From an uncultured Candidatus Saccharibacteria bacterium (GTDB lineage: Bacteria; Patescibacteriota; Minisyncoccia; Minisyncoccales; CAYJUL01), in the NCBI GenBank assembly GCA_964401295.1, contig CAYNXX010000001.1, positions 137,076 through 201,075 on the forward strand: 64,000 nucleotides of DNA. Reading direction: 5' to 3'. The notes under the pieces were generated by a model, which had not been told where the DNA came from, searched no databases, and saw only the letters and a list, made by a program, of their open reading frames with translations. Shown piece after piece: positions 2,128 through 46,777 of this stretch. The position numbers and the translations under genes are program-made. Each line of letters opens with the position of its first letter. Position 1 is the first letter of the stretch.

Positions 2128-2952
2128 TTATCCGGCGGGTTTTATTTCATAAGAATTTTGAGCCAAAGCATAACCTTCTCTTATTTTTTGCAGGTCAATC
2201 AATTCTTGGGCGATTTCTTTATAAGCTCGGGTGGCCAAGGACGCCGGCGCATAATGGAAAATAGTTTTGCCAGCCCGTGGCGCTTCGGCCAAAGCTACCG
2301 AACGCGGAATTACCGTACGAAAAACATAGCCTGGAAAATTTTTCCTGACCTCCTGCGCAACTTCTCTTGAAATCTTGTGGTGACTATTATACATCGTTAG
2401 CACTGCGCCGGCTATATTTAAATTGTGACCAAAATTATTTCTTATTAAACTTATCGTTGATAAAAGCTGGTTTAAACCTTCAAGCGCAAGGTATTCACAC
2501 TGCACCGGAACTAAAACATCGTTCGCCGCAGATAAAGCATTAATGGTCAAAAGTCCTAGACTCGGCGGAGAATCAATAAAAATAAAATCATAATCCTCGC
2601 TTATTTTTTCCAGAGTCTTGGCGAGTTTCGTTTCGCGCTCATGTACTGATACGAGTTCCACCTCCGCGCCGGCCAAATCCTGCGTTGAGGGCATAAGATC
2701 ATAGCCGAAAAACGGAGTCCTGCGTACCACGGCTCTCGGATTTACGTTGCCCAAAAGCGCATGATAGACGGAAATTGGAATATTTTTCGGATGAAAGCCC
2801 AAAGAATAAGTGGCATTGGCTTGGTGATCAAAATCAACCAGCAAAACTTTTTTCCCGAGCGACGCTAGAAAAACGGGCAGATTAACGCTTAAATTGGTCT
2901 TACCGACGCCTCCTTTATTGTTGCAAATCGCTATTATACGCGCCATTACCAA
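2128..2952 (-). CDS. parA: Chromosome partitioning ATPase ParA (Soj)
   Basis: Deviant Walker A motif KGGVGKT (IAICNNKGGVGKTN) is present. The parA-parB operon order is conserved. The true start is probably MARIIAI at 2946. Confidence 0.9.
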   Translation of the reverse strand: MVMARIIAICNNKGGVGKTNLSVNLPVFLASLGKKVLLVDFDHQANATYSLGFHPKNIPISVYHALLGNVNPRAVVRRTPFFGYDLMPSTQDLAGAEVELVSVHERETKLAKTLEKISEDYDFIFIDSPPSLGLLTINALSAANDVLVPVQCEYLALEGLNQLLSTISLIRNNFGHNLNIAGAVLTMYNSHHKISREVAQEVRKNFPGYVFRTVIPRSVALAEAPRAGKTIFHYAPASLATRAYKEIAQELIDLQKIREGYALAQNSYEIKPAG

Positions 2953-3013
2953 ACATTAACATAGCTTTATTTCATTTACAAATAGTCAATTTTTTGATAA
3001 AAAAAGTGATCGC

Positions 3014-3100
3014 GCCCGGGTGGCGAAACTGGCAGACGCACAGGACTCAAAATCCTGCGAGAGCAATCTCATGAGGGTTCAAGTCCCTCCCCGGGCACCA
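3014..3100 (+). tRNA. tRNA-Leu (anticodon CAA), class II with long variable arm, CCA encoded
   Basis: Acceptor GCCCGGG pairs with CCCGGGC. U8 is present. The D-arm GGCGAAACUGGCAGACGC is Leu-like. The anticodon stem is CAGGA/UCCUG with loop CUCAAAA. A long variable arm and T-arm GAGGGUUCAAGUCCCUC are present. The sequence ends A-CCA. Confidence 0.85.
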
Positions 3101-3132
3101 AAACTAACTTTGTCGGAAATGACTGCTCCGCG
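3095..3132 (+). repeat. Copy A of the 37-nt tRNA-3'-end-associated site (gcaccaaaactaactttgtcggaaAtgactgctccgc); one mismatch versus copies B and C
   Basis: Direct comparison with 45085-45121 (same orientation) and 46672-46708 (reverse complement). The single difference (A versus T) falls in the central AATT. Confidence 0.9.
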
Positions 3133-3275
3133 CGCCCCGATAAAAACTGCTAAAGATCTGTAAAAACATCGGCTCGAACCATATTTTGTAAAAGCAGGGG
3201 GGAATTTTTTTTAAAACTGAATACTTGATTCTAAAATCAACAACCTCGCTGATTTTTTGTTTCTGATACAAGCTA

Positions 3276-3303
3276 TTGACTTTTGTTTTGTGTATTATAT
3301 AAT
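3276..3303 (+). promoter_or_regulatory. Sigma70-like promoter (TTGACT, 16-nt spacer, TATAAT) for small ORF P1; a strong SD AAAGGAGG lies at 3335-3342
   Basis: Consensus hexamers were read directly from the sequence. The SD sits 6 nt before the ATG at 3349. Confidence 0.6.
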
Positions 3304-3348
3304 ATAACTGGCGCCTAAGAAAACGGGTGGCCAGAAAGGAGGATTGCT

Positions 3349-3663
3349 ATGGACCATAGCAACCTTGCAGGTCAGAAGTATTCCCACAGTCAATGTGTTC
3401 ACGGCAGGTGCCTTGACCACGGACCGGAGTGGGAAAACGTCGGTGAAGTGCGGCGCGAGCCCAATCCAGGAATCTTCGGTAAGAAGACCTCCGGGATGAA
3501 CCGTTGCTGCGGCAAGCCGATGACGCAGTACAAAGAAGTGCAGACGCAGCGGTGTCGTAAATGCGGACGTACCAAAGATCACATAACGAACTACCGCCTC
3601 GTATTCTGCCTCTGCTGCGGCTACCACTTCACCAAGTCCGGCAGCTCATTATTTACCCCCTAA
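3349..3663 (+). CDS. Small Cys-rich hypothetical protein P1 (104 aa, 10 Cys, CxxxxC / CC / CxxC / CxCC pattern); visibly GC-rich compared with the host
   Basis: The ORF has a consensus promoter, a strong RBS and an intrinsic terminator. Its G+C is visibly above the ~35-40% of flanking genes. It lies between the tRNA-Leu-associated repeat copy A and the hairpin motif m1. Confidence 0.6.
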   Translation: MDHSNLAGQKYSHSQCVHGRCLDHGPEWENVGEVRREPNPGIFGKKTSGMNRCCGKPMTQYKEVQTQRCRKCGRTKDHITNYRLVFCLCCGYHFTKSGSSLFTP

Positions 3664-3680
3664 TGGTCGAGATGTAACAA

Positions 3681-3722
3681 GGGGGTTGCGGGAGAAATCT
3701 CGCACCCCCTTTTTCTTTTTTT
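3681..3722 (+). terminator. Rho-independent terminator of P1 (GGGGGUUGCGGGA-GAAA-UCUCGCACCCCC, GNRA loop, followed by a U-run)
   Basis: The hairpin and T-run (TTTTTCTTTTTTT) were read directly from the sequence. Confidence 0.75.
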
Positions 3723-3782
3723 CGTTTTTGAAATTATCCGGTTCGCGGCGAAGCCACTCATTTTTTGTGGGAGTTTCCTCGC

Positions 3783-3816
3783 CGCTGTAGGCGGCGAAAT
3801 GCATTTGAACTATTTT
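3783..3816 (+). repeat. Motif m1: short GC hairpin (cgccgcTGTAGgcggcg) plus the tail aaatgcatttgaactattttaag. It is related to inverted motif m2 at 42868-42901.
   Basis: About 29 of 33 nt are identical to the reverse complement of 42868-42901, and the upstream hairpin is analogous. Both sit at the tRNA-distal end of a GC-rich islet. Confidence 0.6.
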
Positions 3817-3876
3817 AAGAATTGGGTACTACAAAGACGGGCAGAAAGCCCGTCTTTGTGACCGCTCAAATACTAG

Positions 3877-4404: not shown

Positions 4405-5561
4405 ATTTTTAGATTTCCATTAGCCTTTATTTTTTCTAGATAGGATTTTTTGCCAGCTTTTTGCGCGAAATATCCGGCTATTGCGGCCATAACTCCGTTA
4501 TCTGTGCAAAACTGCGCTTCGGGAGCAACAAAAGCAATATCTGGCGATTCGTTTTTCAATCTCTGTTCCAGTTGACGCCTTAATTCATTGTTGGCCGCAA
4601 CTCCGCCGCCGATTATCACCATCTTAGCATTATAATTTCTAGCCGCGCGGATTGTTTTTTTAACCAAAACGTCAATTATGGCCTGCTGAATTTCAGAGGC
4701 CATTGCCCAAATATAATTCTTGGACATTCTTATTTCCTCCGGCTGCGTTCGCCAATTATACAAAACTGCAGTTTTAAGTCCGGAAAAGCTAAAATCACAA
4801 TCCTGACTTTTGATCATCGGCCGCGGCAATTTAAGTTTCTCTTTATATTTATATTCGGCGCGTTTAGCCGCTTCTGCTATTGCCGGCCCTCCTGGATAAC
4901 CTAGTCCCAAAAGCCGCGCAGTTTTGTCAAAACATTCACCGGCCGAATCGTCCCTCGTCTCACCTATAATCTTATAGCTTCTCGGCTTTTTTGCCAAAAT
5001 CAGCATCGTATGTCCGCCCGACACAAGTAGGCAAATAAAAGGAAATTTATATGGCAGATCCGACAGATTAAGACAGCTCGTTAGAAGATGCGCCTCCAAA
5101 TGATTAACCGCAAAAATTGGTTTATTCCACCAAATTGCTAAAGTTTTCGCAAAATTTATGCCGGTCCAAAGCGCCGGCTCAAGCCCTGGACCATTGACTA
5201 CTGAAATTAAATCTATTCTTGGCACGCCATAATTTTTTAAAAACTTAACCGTACTGGCATAAAATTTTGGCTCTCTTCCCAATATTTTTTTAACTTTTTG
5301 ATTTTCGGATTGTAATTTTGACTTTTGATTTTTGGGTTTTGATTTTAACAATCCCGATAGACTCAAGGCCTTCTTTAATACCGGCACAAGATTGCGTTGA
5401 TGTTCTCTTTTCGCCAACATCGGCACAACACCGCCCCATCTCATGTGAATTTTCACCTGCGAAGAAACGATATCGGAAAGAATTTTAAAATTGTCGTTTT
5501 CTGAATCAACAATCGCTATTGCGGTTTCATCGCACGAAGTTTCAATGCCGAGTATTTTCAT
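4401..5561 (-). CDS. tsaD: tRNA N6-adenosine threonylcarbamoyltransferase TsaD (Kae1/Gcp family) with a lysine-rich insertion
   Basis: The N-terminus reads GIETSCDETAIAIV. The HxxH-type metal site and the C-terminal ASKAC fold are consistent with TsaD. Confidence 0.85.
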   Translation of the reverse strand: MKILGIETSCDETAIAIVDSENDNFKILSDIVSSQVKIHMRWGGVVPMLAKREHQRNLVPVLKKALSLSGLLKSKPKNQKSKLQSENQKVKKILGREPKFYASTVKFLKNYGVPRIDLISVVNGPGLEPALWTGINFAKTLAIWWNKPIFAVNHLEAHLLTSCLNLSDLPYKFPFICLLVSGGHTMLILAKKPRSYKIIGETRDDSAGECFDKTARLLGLGYPGGPAIAEAAKRAEYKYKEKLKLPRPMIKSQDCDFSFSGLKTAVLYNWRTQPEEIRMSKNYIWAMASEIQQAIIDVLVKKTIRAARNYNAKMVIIGGGVAANNELRRQLEQRLKNESPDIAFVAPEAQFCTDNGVMAAIAGYFAQKAGKKSYLEKIKANGNLKI

Positions 5562-5735
5562 GGCCTTAAAATTTTATATAAAAACTGATTAGATAGATCT
5601 TTTTGATGACTGACGCATCACTATTTTAAGAATTTTAATTTTATTTTCCGTGGTTAATTTTATTACTTTCATAAACTACCATGCCATATCTTAAAATAGT
5701 TAATCGGGTAGGCTAGTATACTATGGCAAATAAAT

Positions 5736-6677
5736 TTAATATTTATTGACGTGCTCCAGTGCCAATTTTACAGCGCCAATAACAGGTTCGCTGCGCGGCA
5801 AAACAAAATAAACTCTCCGTGCCACCTTTTTAATTTCAGCCTCAACCTCCTTTGTCACCCATTTTGAACGGAATAGTCCACCGCTTAAAACTACAGGAAA
5901 TTCCCTTTTATCTAAATTAAGTCTTTTAATAACAGTTAGGGCTGCCAGCGCAAGTTCATCGCCGGCCGAAATTAATATTTTTTTTGCCGCCTTATCGCCT
6001 CTTTTGGCGGATGCATCAACCAAATGTGAAAATGAGGCAACTTTCTCAACCAAATCCAAAGTGTATATCATTTCTGTAAGATCCTTAGCTTTTTTAACGC
6101 GCCATTTTTTGATAATCGCCATGCCCAATTTACTCTCCTTCTTGCGGCCGTCCAGCTCATGGCATAGCATTTGTAAAACTTTTTGACCGATCCAAAAAGC
6201 TGAACCCTGATCACCTAAAATATAATCCCAGCCGCCGGCAATCGCCTCGTTGTCGCCGCGCCAACCCATGGCAATCGATCCAGTGCCAGCTATGACAACC
6301 ACGCCGTCGCCACAATCGCTGCCGGATCTGAATGCGGCTTTTTGATCTCCTTCTACTGCAATAATTTCATGCAAATTCGCAAATTGCGGAAGCGCTTTTA
6401 AAAGATAACTTTTTATCGTCTCTCTTTTTTTTGTATTGCGCTCCAGAGAACCAGCAAGAGCTATATATATAGAGGCGATTTTATTTTTATTCATGCCGAT
6501 AGAAACTTTTTTTATCGCCGATTTTAAAACTTCGATTGTCTGATCATATCCAACTTTATTTGGATTAGAGGGGCCGAACAAGGTTCTTTTGATAATTTTT
6601 CCGGATGAATCAGCTAAAACGGCGATGGTTTTGGTGCCGCCGCCGTCTATGCCTATGACAAAATTTTTGCTTTTCAT
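5736..6677 (-). CDS. BadF/BadG/BcrA/BcrD-type ATPase (N-acetylglucosamine kinase-like)
   Basis: The N-terminus reads GIDGGGTKT. Acetate and sugar kinase / Hsp70 / actin fold motifs are present. Confidence 0.7.
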   Translation of the reverse strand: MKSKNFVIGIDGGGTKTIAVLADSSGKIIKRTLFGPSNPNKVGYDQTIEVLKSAIKKVSIGMNKNKIASIYIALAGSLERNTKKRETIKSYLLKALPQFANLHEIIAVEGDQKAAFRSGSDCGDGVVVIAGTGSIAMGWRGDNEAIAGGWDYILGDQGSAFWIGQKVLQMLCHELDGRKKESKLGMAIIKKWRVKKAKDLTEMIYTLDLVEKVASFSHLVDASAKRGDKAAKKILISAGDELALAALTVIKRLNLDKREFPVVLSGGLFRSKWVTKEVEAEIKKVARRVYFVLPRSEPVIGAVKLALEHVNKY

Positions 6678-31387: not shown

Positions 31388-31837
31388 ATGCCCGTCCTGG
31401 CCGAAAATAAAAAAGCCCGCTTCAACTACGAAGTACTGGAATCGTTTGAAGCCGGTATCGTTTTGAAGGGCCAAGAAGTAAAATCAATAAAATCGGGGGG
31501 TATCGCCCTTGCCGGCTCTTATGTTGTTGCCCGCGGCGGCGAAATATGGTTCGTGGGCGCTAATATTCCGCCCTACCAGCCCAAAAATACAACGGCAAAC
31601 TACGATCCCCAGCGGCCGAGAAAATTACTTTTAAAGAAAGAGGAAATAAAGTATTTATTTGGCAGATCCCAGCAGCGAGGCTTGACTTTGGTACCATTAA
31701 GGTTATATACTAAGCAGGGCAGAATAAAATTGGAATTCGGGATCGCCAGACACAAAAAGAAATTCGGAAAAAAACAAACCATTCAAAAAAGGCAGACGCA
31801 AAGAGAAATAGAAAGAGAGCTAAAAACGCGGGGATGA
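31388..31837 (+). CDS. smpB: SsrA-binding protein SmpB
   Basis: The N-terminus reads KKARFNYEVLESFEAGIVLKGQEVKS. Total length is 149 aa. Confidence 0.95.
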   Translation: MPVLAENKKARFNYEVLESFEAGIVLKGQEVKSIKSGGIALAGSYVVARGGEIWFVGANIPPYQPKNTTANYDPQRPRKLLLKKEEIKYLFGRSQQRGLTLVPLRLYTKQGRIKLEFGIARHKKKFGKKQTIQKRQTQREIERELKTRG

Positions 31838-32173
31838 CACAGTTTCGATAGAAGAACTTTTTAAAACATGCGGGCCGAGGCCGATCAAAGCCTCGTTAAA
31901 ATTTGATCAACTAAATAAGTGCCAACTTATTTAACCAACCAGCTTACGCTTTAGCATAAGCCATTTGAAATAATAGATTCTCGATAATTATTTCGGGTGC
32001 AAACCAATCGAGATCGGCGGTTTCTTTGATCTGGAGCGCTGCCGAAAACAACAGATCAAGATGGCGGGCGTTTCGTCCGCTTTCAAGTCCGCCATTTTCC
32101 AAAGTGGACTACACTCGTAGAACTGTTTTAAAAAACATTCTAGACGCGGGGGCAGAACCCGCCATCTCCACCA
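31830..32173 (+). ncRNA. ssrA: tmRNA (ssrA), ~344 nt; tag ORF GCC...TAA encodes (A)NLFNQPAYALA
   Basis: The 5' end GGGGAUGACACAGUUUCGAUAG resembles the E. coli GGGGCUGAUUCUGGAUUCGACGG. It forms a perfect 7-bp acceptor stem with the 3' end ...CAUCUCC-A-CCA, including a G3:U70 pair. A tRNA-like 3' arm GACGCGGGGGCAGAACCCGCC is present. The tag reading frame runs 31921-31959 and ends ...YALA-TAA. The RNA starts within the smpB stop codon. Confidence 0.8.
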
Positions 32174-42544: not shown

Positions 42545-42867
42545 CTCTGCCTCCTTTCATTATTTGCTAACTGCCACGAAATGGCATGGCAGATCGAAAT
42601 CCTCCGCGGGGCTATGAAAACATGCTTGCCCAGGGCGTTTGGGTCGGAAAATTCTTTGACAAGATATTTGCGTCATGCCAGTTATAATTCCTCAGACCGC
42701 CGAAGCTGACGGTGATTCGACCATAGTCAACAGCAACAAAAAACATTTTGTACCTCTTTTTTAAGCTACAACCTGTTAAATATACCAGATTTTATCTTGA
42801 AAGTCAAGAATAAAGACCTGTGCGACGCGCTGGGCTTAAAATATGGCGCAGAATGCTTGAAATAATT

Positions 42868-42901
42868 CGAATGCATTTCGCCGCCGCAAACGGCGGCGAA
42901 A
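42868..42901 (-). repeat. Motif m2: inverted copy of m1 (hairpin cgccgcCGTTTGCggcggcg plus tail aaatgcattcgaattatttcaag)
   Basis: The reverse complement aligns to 3783-3816. It is adjacent to the P4 terminator hairpin at ~42907-42935 (GCGGAAG...CUUCCGC + UUUUU on the minus strand). Confidence 0.6.
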
Positions 42902-42946
42902 CAGAAAAAGCGGAAGTCGAACGGCTTCCGCTAGTCTATAGCAGGG

Positions 42947-43639
42947 TTATTTCTTCTTAACGACCATCTGAAAATCCAGCAAGTCTTTCCCAAGCGTAGC
43001 ATCATTGCGCTTGAGCATGATTTCTTGATAGCCTATCAACTTTCCTGTTTCGTCAACTACCTCCACTAGTCGTGTGTAGTATGGAGCATTATAGCAATCA
43101 CCGCTTTTAAGAATCTGTTCTGCCTCGTAAGCAGTATTGACTCGCCGTTTGTACTCGTCCTTGATATCCTCAAAGACGCCACTAACGCCGATTTCAAGAT
43201 ATTCGGTTTTGTACGAGGCTGAGGTCAATGCCTCAACGGTAAAGTCATACAACCAATAGCGCAATTCTTGCGCCCAATCGCCATTCGCAACTTTCAATTG
43301 AGGAACGCGCTGAATTAATCGGGTAAAGGCATAATTGAACTCCCCGACATACGCTCCCTCATAGTTATACTTAGCACCGACTTCGTAAATTGCTTTTGCA
43401 AGATTCGCTTCACTTGAATCGGCCTCAGATCCCCTAACGACAAAACGAAGACATTGCGCAACTTTGAGGAAAACAGATTTGTAAAATGGAATGGGTGATG
43501 AGCTGCTGTCTATAATGATGGAGTGAAGATGTTGCGCAACTTTGAGGAAAACAGATTTGTAAACCTTAAGGAGCGATAGATTGCTATTTACCCTCGCTAC
43601 AATATCGGCCACAAGCCGCTCTACTGCGGCATCAAGCAC
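42947..43639 (-). CDS. Hypothetical protein P4 (230 aa) with an internal in-frame 81-nt tandem duplication (KSVFLKVAQ..., twice); GC-rich islet cargo
   Basis: The 32-nt strings at 43455-43487 and 43536-43568 are nearly identical. No recognisable domain was found. The start is GTG, with an AGGAGG ~59 nt upstream. Confidence 0.45.
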   Translation of the reverse strand: MLDAAVERLVADIVARVNSNLSLLKVYKSVFLKVAQHLHSIIIDSSSSPIPFYKSVFLKVAQCLRFVVRGSEADSSEANLAKAIYEVGAKYNYEGAYVGEFNYAFTRLIQRVPQLKVANGDWAQELRYWLYDFTVEALTSASYKTEYLEIGVSGVFEDIKDEYKRRVNTAYEAEQILKSGDCYNAPYYTRLVEVVDETGKLIGYQEIMLKRNDATLGKDLLDFQMVVKKK

Positions 43640-44098: not shown

Positions 44099-44800
44099 CT
44101 AGCTGAGGTTCTTGATCGGGGTGGAAACATCGATCTCTCGCCAGTCGAAAAAGATGCGACAAATGCCCGCATCAACTAGCGCGCCTATTGTGATGCCACG
44201 AATCACAACCGGCATCCCAATAGCCTTGGAACCAGCGGCGAGCGCGGCTTTCACGCCCGGTGGCGAATCCTCGAAAACAAGCTGCTCATGGGGATCAATC
44301 TCCATAATTGAGGCAGTTTTCAAGAACACATCCGGCGCCGGTTTTGGGTTCGCGACGTGCTCACGGAGCACAATGTTGCGCTGACCAAAAAGTACCATGA
44401 GACCAGATCGCTCAAGAAGCGTTATCGCGTACTTCTTAGGCGTGAGCGATCCGATTGCGAACTTAAGGCCAAGATTACGCACCTCTCTGAAGAAATCTAA
44501 GAATCCGACGCGGGGCTCGATTGGCATCTCCGCAAGTAGACGTTCGTAGTGAAATTTGTTGCGAGCCAAGATGTCATCGACAGATAAACGATTGCGTGTG
44601 TCGGGATCCAAAAGATCCCGGATATCCTCGCATACCTTTTCGTCAGGTCCACCGATGAAGTGAGGAAGCTTGCTATAGGCTTCGTCGAGCGAGATCCTAA
44701 GTCCTAATTCGCTTGCGACGGCGAGATGTCCGTTATGGTGAGCGACCTCGACATCAACAACAGTGCCTTAGAGATCAAAGGCGATTCCACGAATAGGCAT
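44099..44800 (-). pseudogene. HAD-superfamily hydrolase (beta-phosphoglucomutase-like) interrupted by an in-frame TAA inside the catalytic DxDGT motif (MPIRGIAFDL*GTVVD)
   Basis: The ATG at 44800 gives MPIRGIAFDL, then TAA at 44768-44770. The same frame then continues GTVVD...DSPPGVKAALAAG to 44099. Motifs II-IV are intact. Confidence 0.7.
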
Positions 44801-45084
44801 TACCCATCTCCTTCTTTCTGGATTTTAACTGTCAAGGAACGATCATATAATAACAGAGTTGAATTTAAATGTAAATAGTTAACAAAACAGAGTCCGTAAG
44901 AAATTCTGCGATAAAATCATATGAAATTTTTCTTATCAGTTCTAAAAACCGTCGGCGCAAACTTTTGGGGGCAACGACAGTGCGGGAATTTGCCTCCCCT
45001 CGCCCCCTGTCTTTCCCACCAGAGCGGTTTGGGATTTTACGAAATGCCGCATCAAAAAAGGTTCGCGCGAAATGTATAATTACA

Positions 45085-45156
45085 GCACCAAAACTAACTT
45101 TGTCGGAATTGACTGCTCCGCTTTTGTTTTTGCCGTAAAATCCCAGAGTTCGCCCC
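45085..45156 (+). repeat. Left terminal inverted repeat (copy B, 72 nt) of the recombinase module
   Basis: Nucleotides 1-36 are identical to the reverse complement of 46673-46708. Nucleotides 37-72 match the reverse complement of 46591-46626 with one mismatch. Confidence 0.9.
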
Positions 45157-45165
45157 AATAACCAT

Positions 45166-46769
45166 ATGAAAGAGCTCAAACCAAAAACTCAATGCATTCT
45201 CTATGCTCGGAAATCAACCGAGGAGGATGATAAGCAAGTGATGAGCATAGAAGCTCAACTGTTTGAATTGCGCGAATTTGCCGAGCGAGAACGCATTGAG
45301 ATAATCCGTGAGTTCACGGAAGCGGAAAGCGCAAAGAAACCCGGACGAGAGGAATTTGCCAAAATGCTTTCCTTAATTGAAATAAGCAAAAAGCCGCTCG
45401 GCATTTTGGCATGGCACCCCGATCGTCTCGCCCGCAATAGCGTGGACGGCGGCAGAATCATTTATCTCGTGGACACCGGAGCTATTGCTTCTTTGCGCTT
45501 TCCGCAATTTTGGTTTGAGCCAACTCCGCAAGGGAAATTCATGTTGCAAGTGGCGTTCGGGCAATCAAAGTATTTCTCGGATAACTTGGTTGAAAATGTG
45601 AAGCGCGGTATCCGCCAAAAACTCAGCCGCGGCGAATGGCTGACGCTCGCTCCTTTGGGATATGTGAACAACTACAAAATACGGAACATTGACCCGCACC
45701 CTACTTACGCAAAAGTCATCAAGCGAGCGTTTGAAGAGTACGCCACGGGAAAATATACGCTCGTCGGTTTAGCGGAGTTTTTAGCGGGGCATGGCGTTGT
45801 TCAGAAAAAAGGAACGCCACTTGCAAAAGTTTCCGTCGTGAAAATGCTTACTAACCGAGCATATCTAGGATTTGTAAAATTTCATGGCGAATACCACGAC
45901 GGAAACTTTGAGCCGATTCTTTCCCCGACACTGTTTGAAGCAGTACAGAAAGTATTGAAAAGCAAGCAAAGACCGCGCAAACAGAAAGAGCGATACGATT
46001 TCCCTTTTACGCAGTTTGCGCGGTGCGGCGAGTGCGGAAATATGATTACGGCGCAGTATGCCACCAATCGCTGGGGCACGCGCTATACTTACTACCGTTG
46101 CACCAAGAAAAGCGGGCATTGTAGCCAGCCGTATCTTTCCGCCGATACGCTCGCCGCCCAAGCGCAAACCCTGTTTCAATCAGTGTCGCTTCCTCTCGCG
46201 GAAATTGAGGTTATGGAAAAGCAGATTGACACACGGGAGAAAGAAGAAATTTCCGCGAGAGGAGATGTTGCCCAAAATCTTAAAGCAAAACTCAAGAGGC
46301 GCAGGAGAAGCTAGGCCGGCTTGTCTCGCTCTATTTGGACGACGACATCGAACGAGAACTCTATCTCACAAAGAAAGACGCGCTCCTTCGCCAAAAAGCC
46401 AAGCTGGAAGAAAGTTTGGGAGATTTTGGGCAACAGGGAAAGAATCAGCTCGAACCCTTGCGGAGTTTCGTTTTGTCCTTGAGAGAAGCGGAAAAAGTGG
46501 CGCAAACAAAAAATCACGCCGACTGGCGCAACTTTTTCCGTTCGCTCGGCTCTAACCCCGAGATCAAGGATAAAACGCTTTCAATCAACTGGGGCGAACT
46601 CTGGGATTTTACGGCGAAAACAAAAGCGGATTTTGCCCTGCGGAGCGAGCCGTCCGCCGCGCGGACGGCGAGCGGAGCAGTCAATTCCGACAAAGTTAGT
46701 TTTGGTGCGCCTACGAGGATTCGAACCCCGATCTCGAGCTCCGGAAGCTCGTGTTCTATCCATTAAACT
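45166..46769 (+). pseudogene. Large serine recombinase (resolvase/invertase N-domain, recombinase domain, zinc ribbon, coiled-coil) with a -1 frameshift near 46294-46296
   Basis: The N-terminus reads CILYARKSTEEDDKQ...SIEAQ, containing the catalytic Ser. The C4 zinc ribbon reads CGECGNMITAQY...YYRCTKK. Frame 1 ends ...KAKLKRRRRS* at 46314. The coiled-coil continues in frame 0 (..KEAQEKLGRLVSLYLDDDIERELYL...). Restoring one A in 'ctcaagag' joins the two. Combined length is ~534 aa. Confidence 0.75.
46591..46708 (-). repeat. Right terminal inverted repeat (copy C) with a 46-nt GC-rich palindromic insertion (GCCGUCCG-CCGCG-CGGACGGC)
   Basis: See copy B. The outer end begins at the GCACCA 3' end of tRNA-Arg. 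Confidence 0.9.
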
Positions 46770-46777
46770 ATGGGCGC
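46703..46777 (-). tRNA. tRNA-Arg (anticodon CCG), CCA encoded
   Basis: The reverse complement is GCGCCCAUAGUUUAAUGGAUAGAACACGAGCUUCCGGAGCUCGAGAUCGGGGUUCGAAUCCUCGUAGGCGCACCA. The fold is a cloverleaf with anticodon loop UUCCGGA and a T-loop UUCGAAU. There is one C:A mismatch in the acceptor stem. Confidence 0.8.

Follow-up and report, generated by a model that had tools for sequence, protein, structure and literature searches.

Two gene islets that start at the 3' ends of tRNA-Leu(CAA) and tRNA-Arg(CCG) in the genome of an uncultured Candidatus Saccharibacteria bacterium are probably insertions made by a family of miniature integrative elements that is spread across the candidate phyla radiation (CPR) and driven by a large serine recombinase (LSR). 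The islets lie in a 64,000-nucleotide (nt) stretch of contig CAYNXX010000001.1, called the window here; coordinates are window positions unless a comparison locus from another genome or metagenome (L and a number) is named, and P with four digits denotes homologous proteins. We infer the recombination steps from the anatomy of the elements, their distribution, their variable flanks, the two orientations of the recombinase segment and the presence of empty sites.

In the model that we favor, the autonomous unit would measure ~1.7-1.9 kb and consist of a recombinase gene between two long inverted repeats (IRs), with either a real tRNA 3' end or a pseudo-tRNA 3' end, T(ps), outside each IR; a motif named m, found at the far end of both islets, would be one variant of T(ps). 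On a circular form, the junction T(ps)-GCACCA-IR would act as attP and recombine with attB, a tRNA gene end; crossover within or just after GCACCA would give attL (tRNA-GCACCA-IR) and attR (T(ps)-GCACCA-like sequence-host) and leave the tRNA intact. T(ps) would mimic a tRNA end, making attP resemble attL and attR resemble attB, and because of these resemblances the reaction may be reversible without a directionality factor. An internal, inverted attP-like site would let the recombinase segment flip. The tRNA-Arg islet would then be a frameshifted, probably dead recombinase unit at the tRNA, with older cargo ending in one copy of m (m2), and the tRNA-Leu islet a recombinase-less cassette that kept a 34-nt arm, relics of recombinase genes, the cargo gene P1 and the other copy (m1).

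Shared motifs at the two tRNA genes

A first-pass annotation of the window, made from the sequence alone, had proposed that the two tRNA loci share a 31-nt site and, at their far ends, an inverted motif. Both proposals stand. The site (AAACTAACTTTGTCGGAAWTGACTGCTCCGC) occurs three times in the window with at most one mismatch (3101-3131, +; 45091-45121, +; 46672-46702, -) and gave no match in 100 shuffles of the window; its first and third copies, on the 3101 and 46702 sides, start with the first base past the tRNA CCA. Motif m forms a 51-nt inverted pair (3773-3823 and 42852-42902) at 80% identity, with a 25-nt core that is found twice in the 64 kb where none is expected, and each copy has, as had been stated, the same orientation relative to its own tRNA. 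A dot plot of one islet against the other had been suggested; a whole-window repeat search answers the same question, the islets sharing no repeats other than the site and m. The description of the islets as GC-rich holds for the tRNA-Arg islet, whose GC content (0.471) exceeds that of all 3.86-kb background windows, and only moderately for the tRNA-Leu islet (0.468 against a background of 0.417, within the top 5.7% of windows), in which P1 alone reaches 0.546 (top 0.5%).

Outward from tRNA-Leu, the order is GCACCA, a 34-nt arm, a family-2 relic, P1, a codon-motif remnant with hairpin 1, hairpin 2 with m1, and host DNA. Outward from tRNA-Arg, it is GCACCA, right IR, antisense recombinase, left IR, inverted T(ps), the cargo genes for a HAD-family hydrolase and a DUF6899 protein, m2 in direct orientation, and host DNA. 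Families 1 and 2 are recombinase-element families whose recombinases are 47% identical. The features of both islets follow; tRNAs were called with ARAGORN and confirmed with Rfam.

3014-3100, +: tRNA-Leu(CAA), found by ARAGORN and Rfam; its final six nt, GCACCA (3095-3100), are the shared junction core
3101-3134, +: solo 34-nt outer arm of the family-1 IR (31-nt site plus GCG), attL-type, cut where the IR hairpin would start
3140-3200, +: relic module: 26 nt from the very end of a family-2 recombinase gene (3162-3187, AAAAACATCGGCTCGAACCATATTTT) and then sequence resembling a 5' untranslated region (5'UTR)
3276-3303, +: P1 promoter (TTGACT, 16-nt spacer, TATAAT), matching sigma-70 at 11 of 12 positions
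3349-3663, +: P1, a 104-amino-acid (aa) Cys/His-rich cargo protein with 44 homologues
3687-3712, +: intrinsic terminator of P1, conserved in L031 and L032
3727-3778, +: inner m module, a remnant of GAATTTGCCGCCAAAGAAAAACTTGAAATTGTCAAAG (recombinase codons ~28-40) and then hairpin 1 (CGCGGCGAAGCC...), from the m-module alignment and motif scan
3779-3832, +: m1, hairpin 2 (3779-3797) plus the pseudo-tRNA arm GAAATGCATTTGAACTATTTTAAGAATTGGGTACTAC; attR-type distal end with host DNA next to it
42845-42902, -: m2, a hairpin plus a pseudo-tRNA arm ending ...CATTCTGCGCC(A); distal end of the tRNA-Arg islet, direct with tRNA-Arg
42947-43639, -: cargo open reading frame (ORF) of 230 aa, DUF6899 (PF21840, E = 2.3e-9), with a terminator at 42909-42932
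~44099-44809, -: HAD-family hydrolase pseudogene with an in-frame stop in its DxD motif; promoter at 44875-44847
45047-45090, +: family-1 pseudo-tRNA 3' end and promoter piece (GGTTCGCGCGAAATGTATAATTACA plus GCACCA), homologous to m and inverted relative to tRNA-Arg
45091-45157, +: left IR and recombinase 5'UTR; the hairpin segment is deleted in the window copy
45166-46702, +: LSR gene, frameshifted; ORF 45166-46314 has Pfam Resolvase, Recombinase and Zn_ribbon_recom
46590-46702, -: right IR (attL-type arm), with a 40-nt GC hairpin at 46631-46670
46703-46777, -: tRNA-Arg(CCG); its 3' GCACCA (46703-46708) is the outermost part of the IR

The recombinase unit, its arms and its junctions

The translated recombinase of the tRNA-Arg islet is identified by its domains as an LSR. 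It matches PF00239 Resolvase (E = 4.5e-20, residues 11-158, with a YARKS motif in the translation), PF07508 Recombinase (E = 4.3e-13), the PF13408 zinc ribbon (E = 1.9e-9) and PHROG 95 integrase (E = 3.5e-67), with distant matches in the PDB (3guv, 9dxh from SPbeta and 4kis from A118; E about 1e-7). The gene shifts frame near 46284-46293, which one missing base would explain, and over its two frames it is 87% identical to the intact 537-aa protein of L018. The window copy is probably dead because of this shift; homologues elsewhere, unlike it, are intact, and the protein measures ~520 aa. The gene had been described as flanked by terminal inverted repeats, and it is, with longer arms than had been recognized: 45085-45157 and 46590-46708, both including the GCACCA that makes up the last six bases of the tRNA. 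The right arm holds a 40-nt hairpin insertion absent from the left arm, and the final ~110 nt of the continuing recombinase frame lie within the right arm; the frame extends from there into antisense tRNA.

The same architecture (T(ps), left IR, recombinase, right IR and a convergent tRNA) recurs in L018 and L027 of family 1, in L040 and L022 of family 2, the left end of L022 being cut by its contig, and in L065, whose arms are 131 nt long, 100% identical and start exactly at the tRNA-Glu end TCACCA. L062 has the same plan without a tRNA. There the recombinase unit (4863-6546), with a 145-nt IR at 99% identity, has an RVT_1 reverse transcriptase, a DinB-like polymerase and a helicase as neighbors, and it may sit within another mobile element. 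These loci qualify the earlier picture of a larger, 3.8-kb element at tRNA-Arg: its recombinase module is present, and the autonomous unit is the module of ~1.7-1.9 kb only. Many recombinase contigs are just 1.7-1.9 kb long, as expected of a collapsed multi-copy unit.

The recombinase family comprises 6862 proteins at E < 1e-40, with annotated lengths of ~370 to 650 aa, a spread that arises partly because ORFs read past the right IR and partly because some entries are truncated. Among the best 120 of the 6862 homologues, at least 55 end in an antisense-tRNA peptide and at least 8 in an antisense-T(ps) peptide, and a single cluster at 90% identity has at least five flank types. In P0165-P0298, the C-terminal tails vary by read-through into antisense tRNA or pseudo-tRNA, and in some entries the N-terminus likewise extends through the left IR; the termini as given in the database probably do not represent genuine protein. 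One apparent case of an identical recombinase at different insertion sites was discarded, P0249 and P0254 having proved to be one locus recovered from different samples.

The recombinase ORF is the only one in the 1.9-kb unit. Its promoter piece is immediately preceded by a GC-rich, multi-hairpin, non-coding region of 200-350 nt that is conserved within subfamilies (L018 960-1320; L008 4880-5060; L065 860-1000; L062 4570-4840; also L027 and L024) and has no match in Rfam. A small XRE-type helix-turn-helix (HTH) gene is found near the unit, just beyond this region, in L008, L018 and L065.

In cross-genome comparison the 31-nt site is the outer end of a 100-145-nt IR that brackets the LSR gene, and the earlier view of the site as the end of the element is thereby refined: it is the outer arm, but as part of this longer repeat. 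Conserved sequence beyond the 31 nt consists of an 8-bp GC hairpin and then ~60 nt ending ...GAGTTCGCCCCA, after which comes either the recombinase 3' end or the recombinase start codon. The hairpin stem exists in two versions, GCGCGGCG/CGCCGCGC and GCGCGGGC/GCCCGCGC, which differ on both strands at two stem positions, and with several loop variants; the right arm in the window has a different hairpin at the same position. Judging by these stems, the hairpin is maintained through compensatory changes on both strands. Between the CCA and the invariant TAACTTTGTCGG, 3-5 nt differ between junctions (AAAC, AATG, CAAC, CAAT, GAAC), and this short variable stretch is the likely crossover zone.

An exact scan with the 24-nt core of the site matched 29 GTDB species genomes, mostly CPR: Parcubacteria lineages, Microgenomates, Saccharibacteria, Berkelbacteria, Peregrinibacteria, WWE3 and Doudnabacteria. 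The core lies directly past a tRNA CCA in 22 of the 29 genome matches, and the tRNAs that precede it are mostly Leu (four anticodons), with Arg, Ile, Val and Tyr besides. Many matches lie less than 100 nt from where the stored stretch stops, which in several cases is also the end of the contig, as is expected because the repeat breaks assemblies. Three contigs of metagenome-assembled genomes labeled uncultured Gammaproteobacteria (L012, L013 and L025) carry the CPR element beside tRNA-Arg or tRNA-Leu; either they are mis-binned CPR sequence or the host range is broader. Scans of IMG/VR with the site core and with the m core gave no matches for either, and, given these results, a viral origin was set aside, nothing pointing to a phage.

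Pseudo-tRNA 3' ends form a recognizable class, made up of a T-loop-like TTCG(A), a -10-like box, which in the recombinase-proximal piece faces the recombinase gene within what is by eye promoter-like sequence, and an end resembling an acceptor stem plus CCA (...GCACCA). They sit just outside the left IR or at the far end of an islet beside host DNA, and they are conserved within each family. The family-1 piece outside the left IR reads GGTTCGCGCGAAGTGTATAATTACA followed by GCACCA; its window copy (45047-45090) is conserved in L004, L008, L010, L018, L027 and L072 and, with the left IR, makes 45047-45157 an attP-like site. No convincing dyad symmetry between the pseudo-tRNA arm and the IR arm was seen by eye.

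Motif m is, from its junctions, the family-2 counterpart of this piece, because in L040 and L046 the m arm runs directly into GCACCA and a family-2 IR, with the recombinase next in L040. A metagenome scan with the m core yielded 22 loci, ~19 of them true, and the true loci share a module of ~150 nt (aligned for 21 m modules) that comprises GAATTTGCCGCCAAAGAAAAACTTGAAATTGTCAAAG, two hairpins and GAAATGCATTCGAACTATTTTAAGAATACAGCACCA; the first of these sequences also occurs inside family-2 recombinase genes, at codons ~28-40. At L039/L041, L045/L052, L049, L054 and L042, m stands at the end of an islet, 0.4-1.4 kb downstream of a tRNA and in direct orientation, with cargo between tRNA and m that is unlike in all of these loci and with sequence beyond m that is unrelated between loci and taken as host DNA. 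On this comparison m is an element arm, in ~19 metagenome loci, and not a generic terminator, the alternative that the first-pass annotation had itself raised. Both window copies have degenerate ends (m1, GGGTACTAC; m2, CTGCGCCA), direct and GCACCA-like, which belong to this conserved element arm and are no copy of the host tRNA.

The junctions fall into four kinds, consistent with attL, attP, attR and attB around a putative crossover point:

tRNA-GCACCA-IR, read as attL: many loci
T(ps)-GCACCA-IR, read as attP: L040, L046, L072 and window 45047-45157
T(ps)-GCACCA-like sequence-host, read as attR: m loci, and m1 and m2 in the window
tRNA-CCA-unrelated DNA, read as attB: L060 and L061

Empty sites had been named as a check. 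In the distant relatives L060 and L061, the orthologous tRNA-Leu(CAA) loci are empty, with no site, P1 or m, and both retain the neighborhood of ParB-ParA / tRNA-Leu(CAA) ... PAP2-TsaD. With the site cores that follow tRNAs and the m loci, they uphold the claim of a mobile-element family at tRNA 3' ends, with and without recombinase. The empty site of L060 (9236-9250, -) reads CCAATACTTTAACTTTAAT and has AACTTT in common with the element arm (CCAAAACTAACTTTGTC), which may be chance or a recombinase preference downstream of CCA.

A circular form is suggested by L072, a contig of 1948 nt in which T(ps)-GCACCA-IR stands at both recombinase ends, mutually inverted, and whose right and left ends map adjacent and colinear on a contiguous stretch of L008. 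It fits a circle of ~1.9 kb with two inverted attP-like sites, or a tandem repeat. In L008, this distal T(ps) borders other DNA, in the attR configuration, and tRNA-Leu adjoins an IR remnant; by these junctions L008 is the integrated form. As for inversion, a flank of T(ps) plus GC-rich sequence stands at the recombinase 3' end in L073 and at the 5' end in L018, and because the 5' flank of L018 abuts the L073 recombinase 3' end, the L073 segment is flipped. The same T(ps) piece is on the recombinase 5' side in L072 and in the window, and a tRNA is on that side in L006 and P0184, so both orientations are seen across different loci, not within one population. Serine recombinases follow a polarity rule by which a head-to-head pair of sites of the same polarity undergoes inversion; excision would therefore have to use the tRNA-proximal and the distal T(ps) junctions.

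Cargo, islet history and competing explanations

P1 had been credited with its own promoter, Shine-Dalgarno sequence and terminator, and all three are found: a promoter with the 11/12 match listed above, GGAGG, and the terminator, called at 3687-3704 within the stretch 3687-3712 listed above. Its homologues are 55-100% identical and share the invariant residues C21, H24, C54, C69, C72, C87, C89 and C90, a Cys/His pattern that suggests two zinc sites. P1 matches no Pfam or PHROG family; its AlphaFold2 model has moderate confidence (predicted local distance difference test score, 72.6), and Foldseek against the PDB returned nothing below E = 1. In L031 and L032, P1 likewise stands beside a tRNA 3' end, in relics of elements of the same class with other arms. 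Looking up the exact P1 and recombinase proteins of the window returned no match. In the one contig recovered, a 3.3-kb Logan contig that ends at the site (L030), a public gene call at 2826-3158 (window 3295-3627, -) places a 110-aa ORF antisense to P1, and because P1 is a conserved gene this call is probably wrong.

In the tRNA-Arg islet, the HAD gene had been called a pseudogene; it has a stop inside the DxD motif (FDL*GT), reads MPIRGIAFDL*GTVV, and has as its only defect seen a TAA at the second Asp of the catalytic motif, behind a promoter that matches at 10 of 12 positions. The stop could reflect a pseudogene or a sequencing error. The DUF6899 ORF contains a 66-nt direct repeat (43447-43512 and 43525-43590, 77% identical, core GCGCAACTTTGAGGAAAACAGATTTGTAAA), an internal coding duplication. 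A transfer-messenger RNA (tmRNA) gene lies at 31830-32173 (Rfam, 108 bits). Genes for tmRNA are classic integration sites, but this one was rejected as a third site: infC follows it directly, with no islet. At the gathering threshold, Rfam found only tRNAs and this one tmRNA in the window and six comparison loci.

Both window islets are probably composites of successive insertions, because m belongs natively to family 2 and the site to family 1, and the two types stand in tandem in L015. The native joining of m to the IR of a sister family (L040, L046) points the same way: the tRNA-Leu islet, earlier read as a miniature derivative without the recombinase, did not arise from the tRNA-Arg islet directly by deletion. 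The strongest rival to the favored reading goes further, holding that the site and m are not two ends of one element at all and that each tRNA received two independent insertions: an older, family-2-type cassette ending in m, then a family-1 unit between cassette and tRNA, which at tRNA-Leu was later deleted to 34 nt. We give this history somewhat less than an even chance. In its favor, m is joined to a family-2 IR in L040 and L046 and L072 and L008 have another T(ps) variant as their family-1 distal arm; the tandem arrangement in L015 fits it as well, as do the P1 cassettes of L031 and L032, which lack a family-1 site. At tRNA-Leu itself, the 34-nt family-1 arm directly precedes the family-2 recombinase 3' relic, of which 3162-3187 exactly matches L040 4689-4714 inside the L040 recombinase gene; the relic module is also present in L031, L045, L052 and L040 3049-3074. 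However, the pairing of a family-1 site with m recurs at an unrelated metagenome locus, L042, so the combination is not exclusive to the window genome, and m pairs with several kinds of proximal arm, behaving as a general distal arm. Two independent insertions would, moreover, alter the history of the islets and not the family or the mechanism.

The cut that leaves an arm of ~31-38 nt, as at tRNA-Leu, recurs independently in L015, L024, L026, L028 and L042; the arm that is left may be a minimal one, or the hairpin base a hotspot of deletion. In L042 (3580-3860, -), a second, partial tRNA 3' end (GTTCGAGTCCTAGTAGGGGCACCA) lies ~190 nt downstream of a complete tRNA-Lys and directly before the family-1 site, which suggests that DNA of a different kind had inserted between these tRNA ends earlier.

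Returning to the favored reading of LSR-driven insertions, a bolder version would make the system a self-contained platform for gene capture at tRNA ends. Its tRNA-mimicking attP (attP like attL, attB like attR) would allow one factor-free reaction to serve both integration and excision, recombinase expression would be set by flip-flop orientation, and cassettes like that of P1 would be mobilized in trans across tRNAs and distant CPR lineages. If true, this would amount to an integron-like cassette economy on a serine recombinase; we consider it speculative and rather unlikely as a whole.

Less likely again is an insertion sequence (IS)-like transposon in which only the IR-to-IR unit is mobile, its joined ends form a perfectly palindromic attP, and the pseudo-tRNA piece belongs to the target, as the B' arm of a palindromic attB. 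LSR attP and attB sites are naturally quasi-palindromic, the L065 IRs are 100% identical across 131 nt, contigs of 1.7-1.9 kb are common, and CCGACAAAGT-TA-ACTTTGTCGG would form a perfect palindrome. Nevertheless, the pseudo-tRNA piece stands beside the left IR in all cases seen, across four recombinase subfamilies and whatever the opposite tRNA, and by eye it holds a stretch resembling a promoter directed at the recombinase; among these cases no left IR abutted ordinary host DNA, and head-to-head sites of the same polarity should invert rather than excise. Finally, the notion that CPR genomes use site, hairpin and m natively, as tRNA trailers, terminators or processing signals, prompted by the terminator-like hairpin and U-rich stretch past the tRNA and by the site's presence at both window tRNAs, is highly improbable and largely refuted by near-identical arms of ~120 nt after different tRNAs in distant CPR lineages, orthologous tRNA-Leu(CAA) loci without the site, one site copy away from tRNAs and upstream of the recombinase, contigs that break at the repeat, the mere two copies of m in 64 kb and the lack of an Rfam family match.

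Several points weigh against the reading of both islets as LSR-driven insertions. No recombination event was seen, the steps being read from sequence. The genome collection searched contained no close sister, the best TsaD match being 63% identical. The nearest relatives with an empty site are distant (TsaD 58-63% identical), and the region from tRNA-Leu to PAP2 is variable in any case; the putative circle is a single contig with ends that overlap by just ~6 nt; and the L062 element is not beside a tRNA. The junction of m with a family-1 IR, the predicted attP of the window, was not found, only that of m with a family-2 IR. LSR att sites normally share a 2-bp core, so that a 6-nt core with arms of more than 100 nt is atypical, and no single rearrangement explained how fragments of recombinase genes came to lie beside the site and m. 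The window copies are probably both decayed and may be immobile scars, because the recombinase is frameshifted, the pseudo-CCA of m1 (GGGTACTAC) is degenerate and the tRNA-Leu arm is truncated.

Significance and relation to known systems

CPR bacteria (Patescibacteria) have tiny genomes, and their gene exchange is little understood. If the favored reading is true, a 1.9-kb serine-recombinase element would be a vehicle for gene movement and tRNA-adjacent variable regions in CPR, leaving small promoter-bearing cargo genes behind at tRNA ends. It would also explain why CPR contigs frequently break at tRNAs and why proteins annotated as recombinase family proteins have variable C-terminal tails, through antisense-tRNA read-through. 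An LSR that acts on tRNA-end-like DNA at many targets, maybe with factor-free reversal, would be useful for comparison in studies of mechanism and in genome engineering.

The mechanism had been called undescribed, which is correct only in part. The chemistry appears to be ordinary LSR recombination and not a new kind of mechanism; it is the architecture and the family that appear undescribed, the literature searched containing no description of this element family, which is absence of evidence only. The resolvase, recombinase and zinc ribbon domains are those of phiC31, Bxb1, A118, SPbeta SprA/YokA, TnpX of Tn4451 and TndX of Tn5397, and LSR elements likewise have hybrid att sites with inverted-repeat arms at their ends; here, too, a circular form is plausible. 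In contrast to those systems, the family targets the universal 3' end that many tRNA genes have in common rather than a protein-coding gene or degenerate site, its shared core measures 6 nt, and its arms are near-perfect over 100-145 nt. One attP arm mimics a tRNA 3' end, by eye with promoter-like sequence, and a second, inverted attP-like site brackets the recombinase gene, which the IRs would make invertible. The element measures only ~1.9 kb, no directionality factor was seen in it, and it is accompanied by a population of recombinase-less cassettes with varied cargo. IS607/Tn4451-type elements show low specificity, with a dinucleotide target and no long IRs, whereas here 22 of 29 matches are at tRNA 3' ends and the IRs span 100-145 nt.

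With the Hin, Gin, Cin and Pin invertases the family shares a recombinase gene in or near a segment with inverted sites, found in both orientations. Those enzymes, however, are small serine recombinases with a C-terminal HTH and a Fis-dependent enhancer that switch host or phage genes and are not self-mobile; here the enzyme is an LSR of ~520 aa and the module itself would be mobile. The recombinase-less islets, which keep both arms around one or a few small genes and combine one distal arm with many cargos, recall miniature inverted-repeat transposable elements (MITEs) and integron cassettes. Unlike integron cassettes, they have cargo with its own promoter (P1), no tyrosine IntI and no attC, that is, no attC-like imperfect palindrome at one end only; unlike MITEs, whose ends are alike, their two ends differ, and mobilization in trans is hypothetical.

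The nearest described concept that we found is the tycheposon. Tycheposons mostly use tyrosine recombinases, each specific to one tRNA (910 of 937 elements), exceed the present elements by kilobases and frequently have genes for replication (Hackl et al., bioRxiv 10.1101/2020.12.28.424599). The elements described here depart from them in their serine recombinase, in near-identical arms past at least five tRNA isotypes (Leu, Arg, Ile, Val and Tyr) and in a distal repeat that is a conserved, element-borne pseudo-tRNA arm and not a copy of the host tRNA. The likeness lies in integration next to a tRNA that stays intact (the tRNAs are complete by ARAGORN and Rfam, and the element starts past the CCA), perhaps in a partial tRNA-like distal sequence, and in the presence of cargo genes, of elements accreted in tandem and of degraded remnants; in its overall logic the family resembles a tRNA-anchored integrative island.

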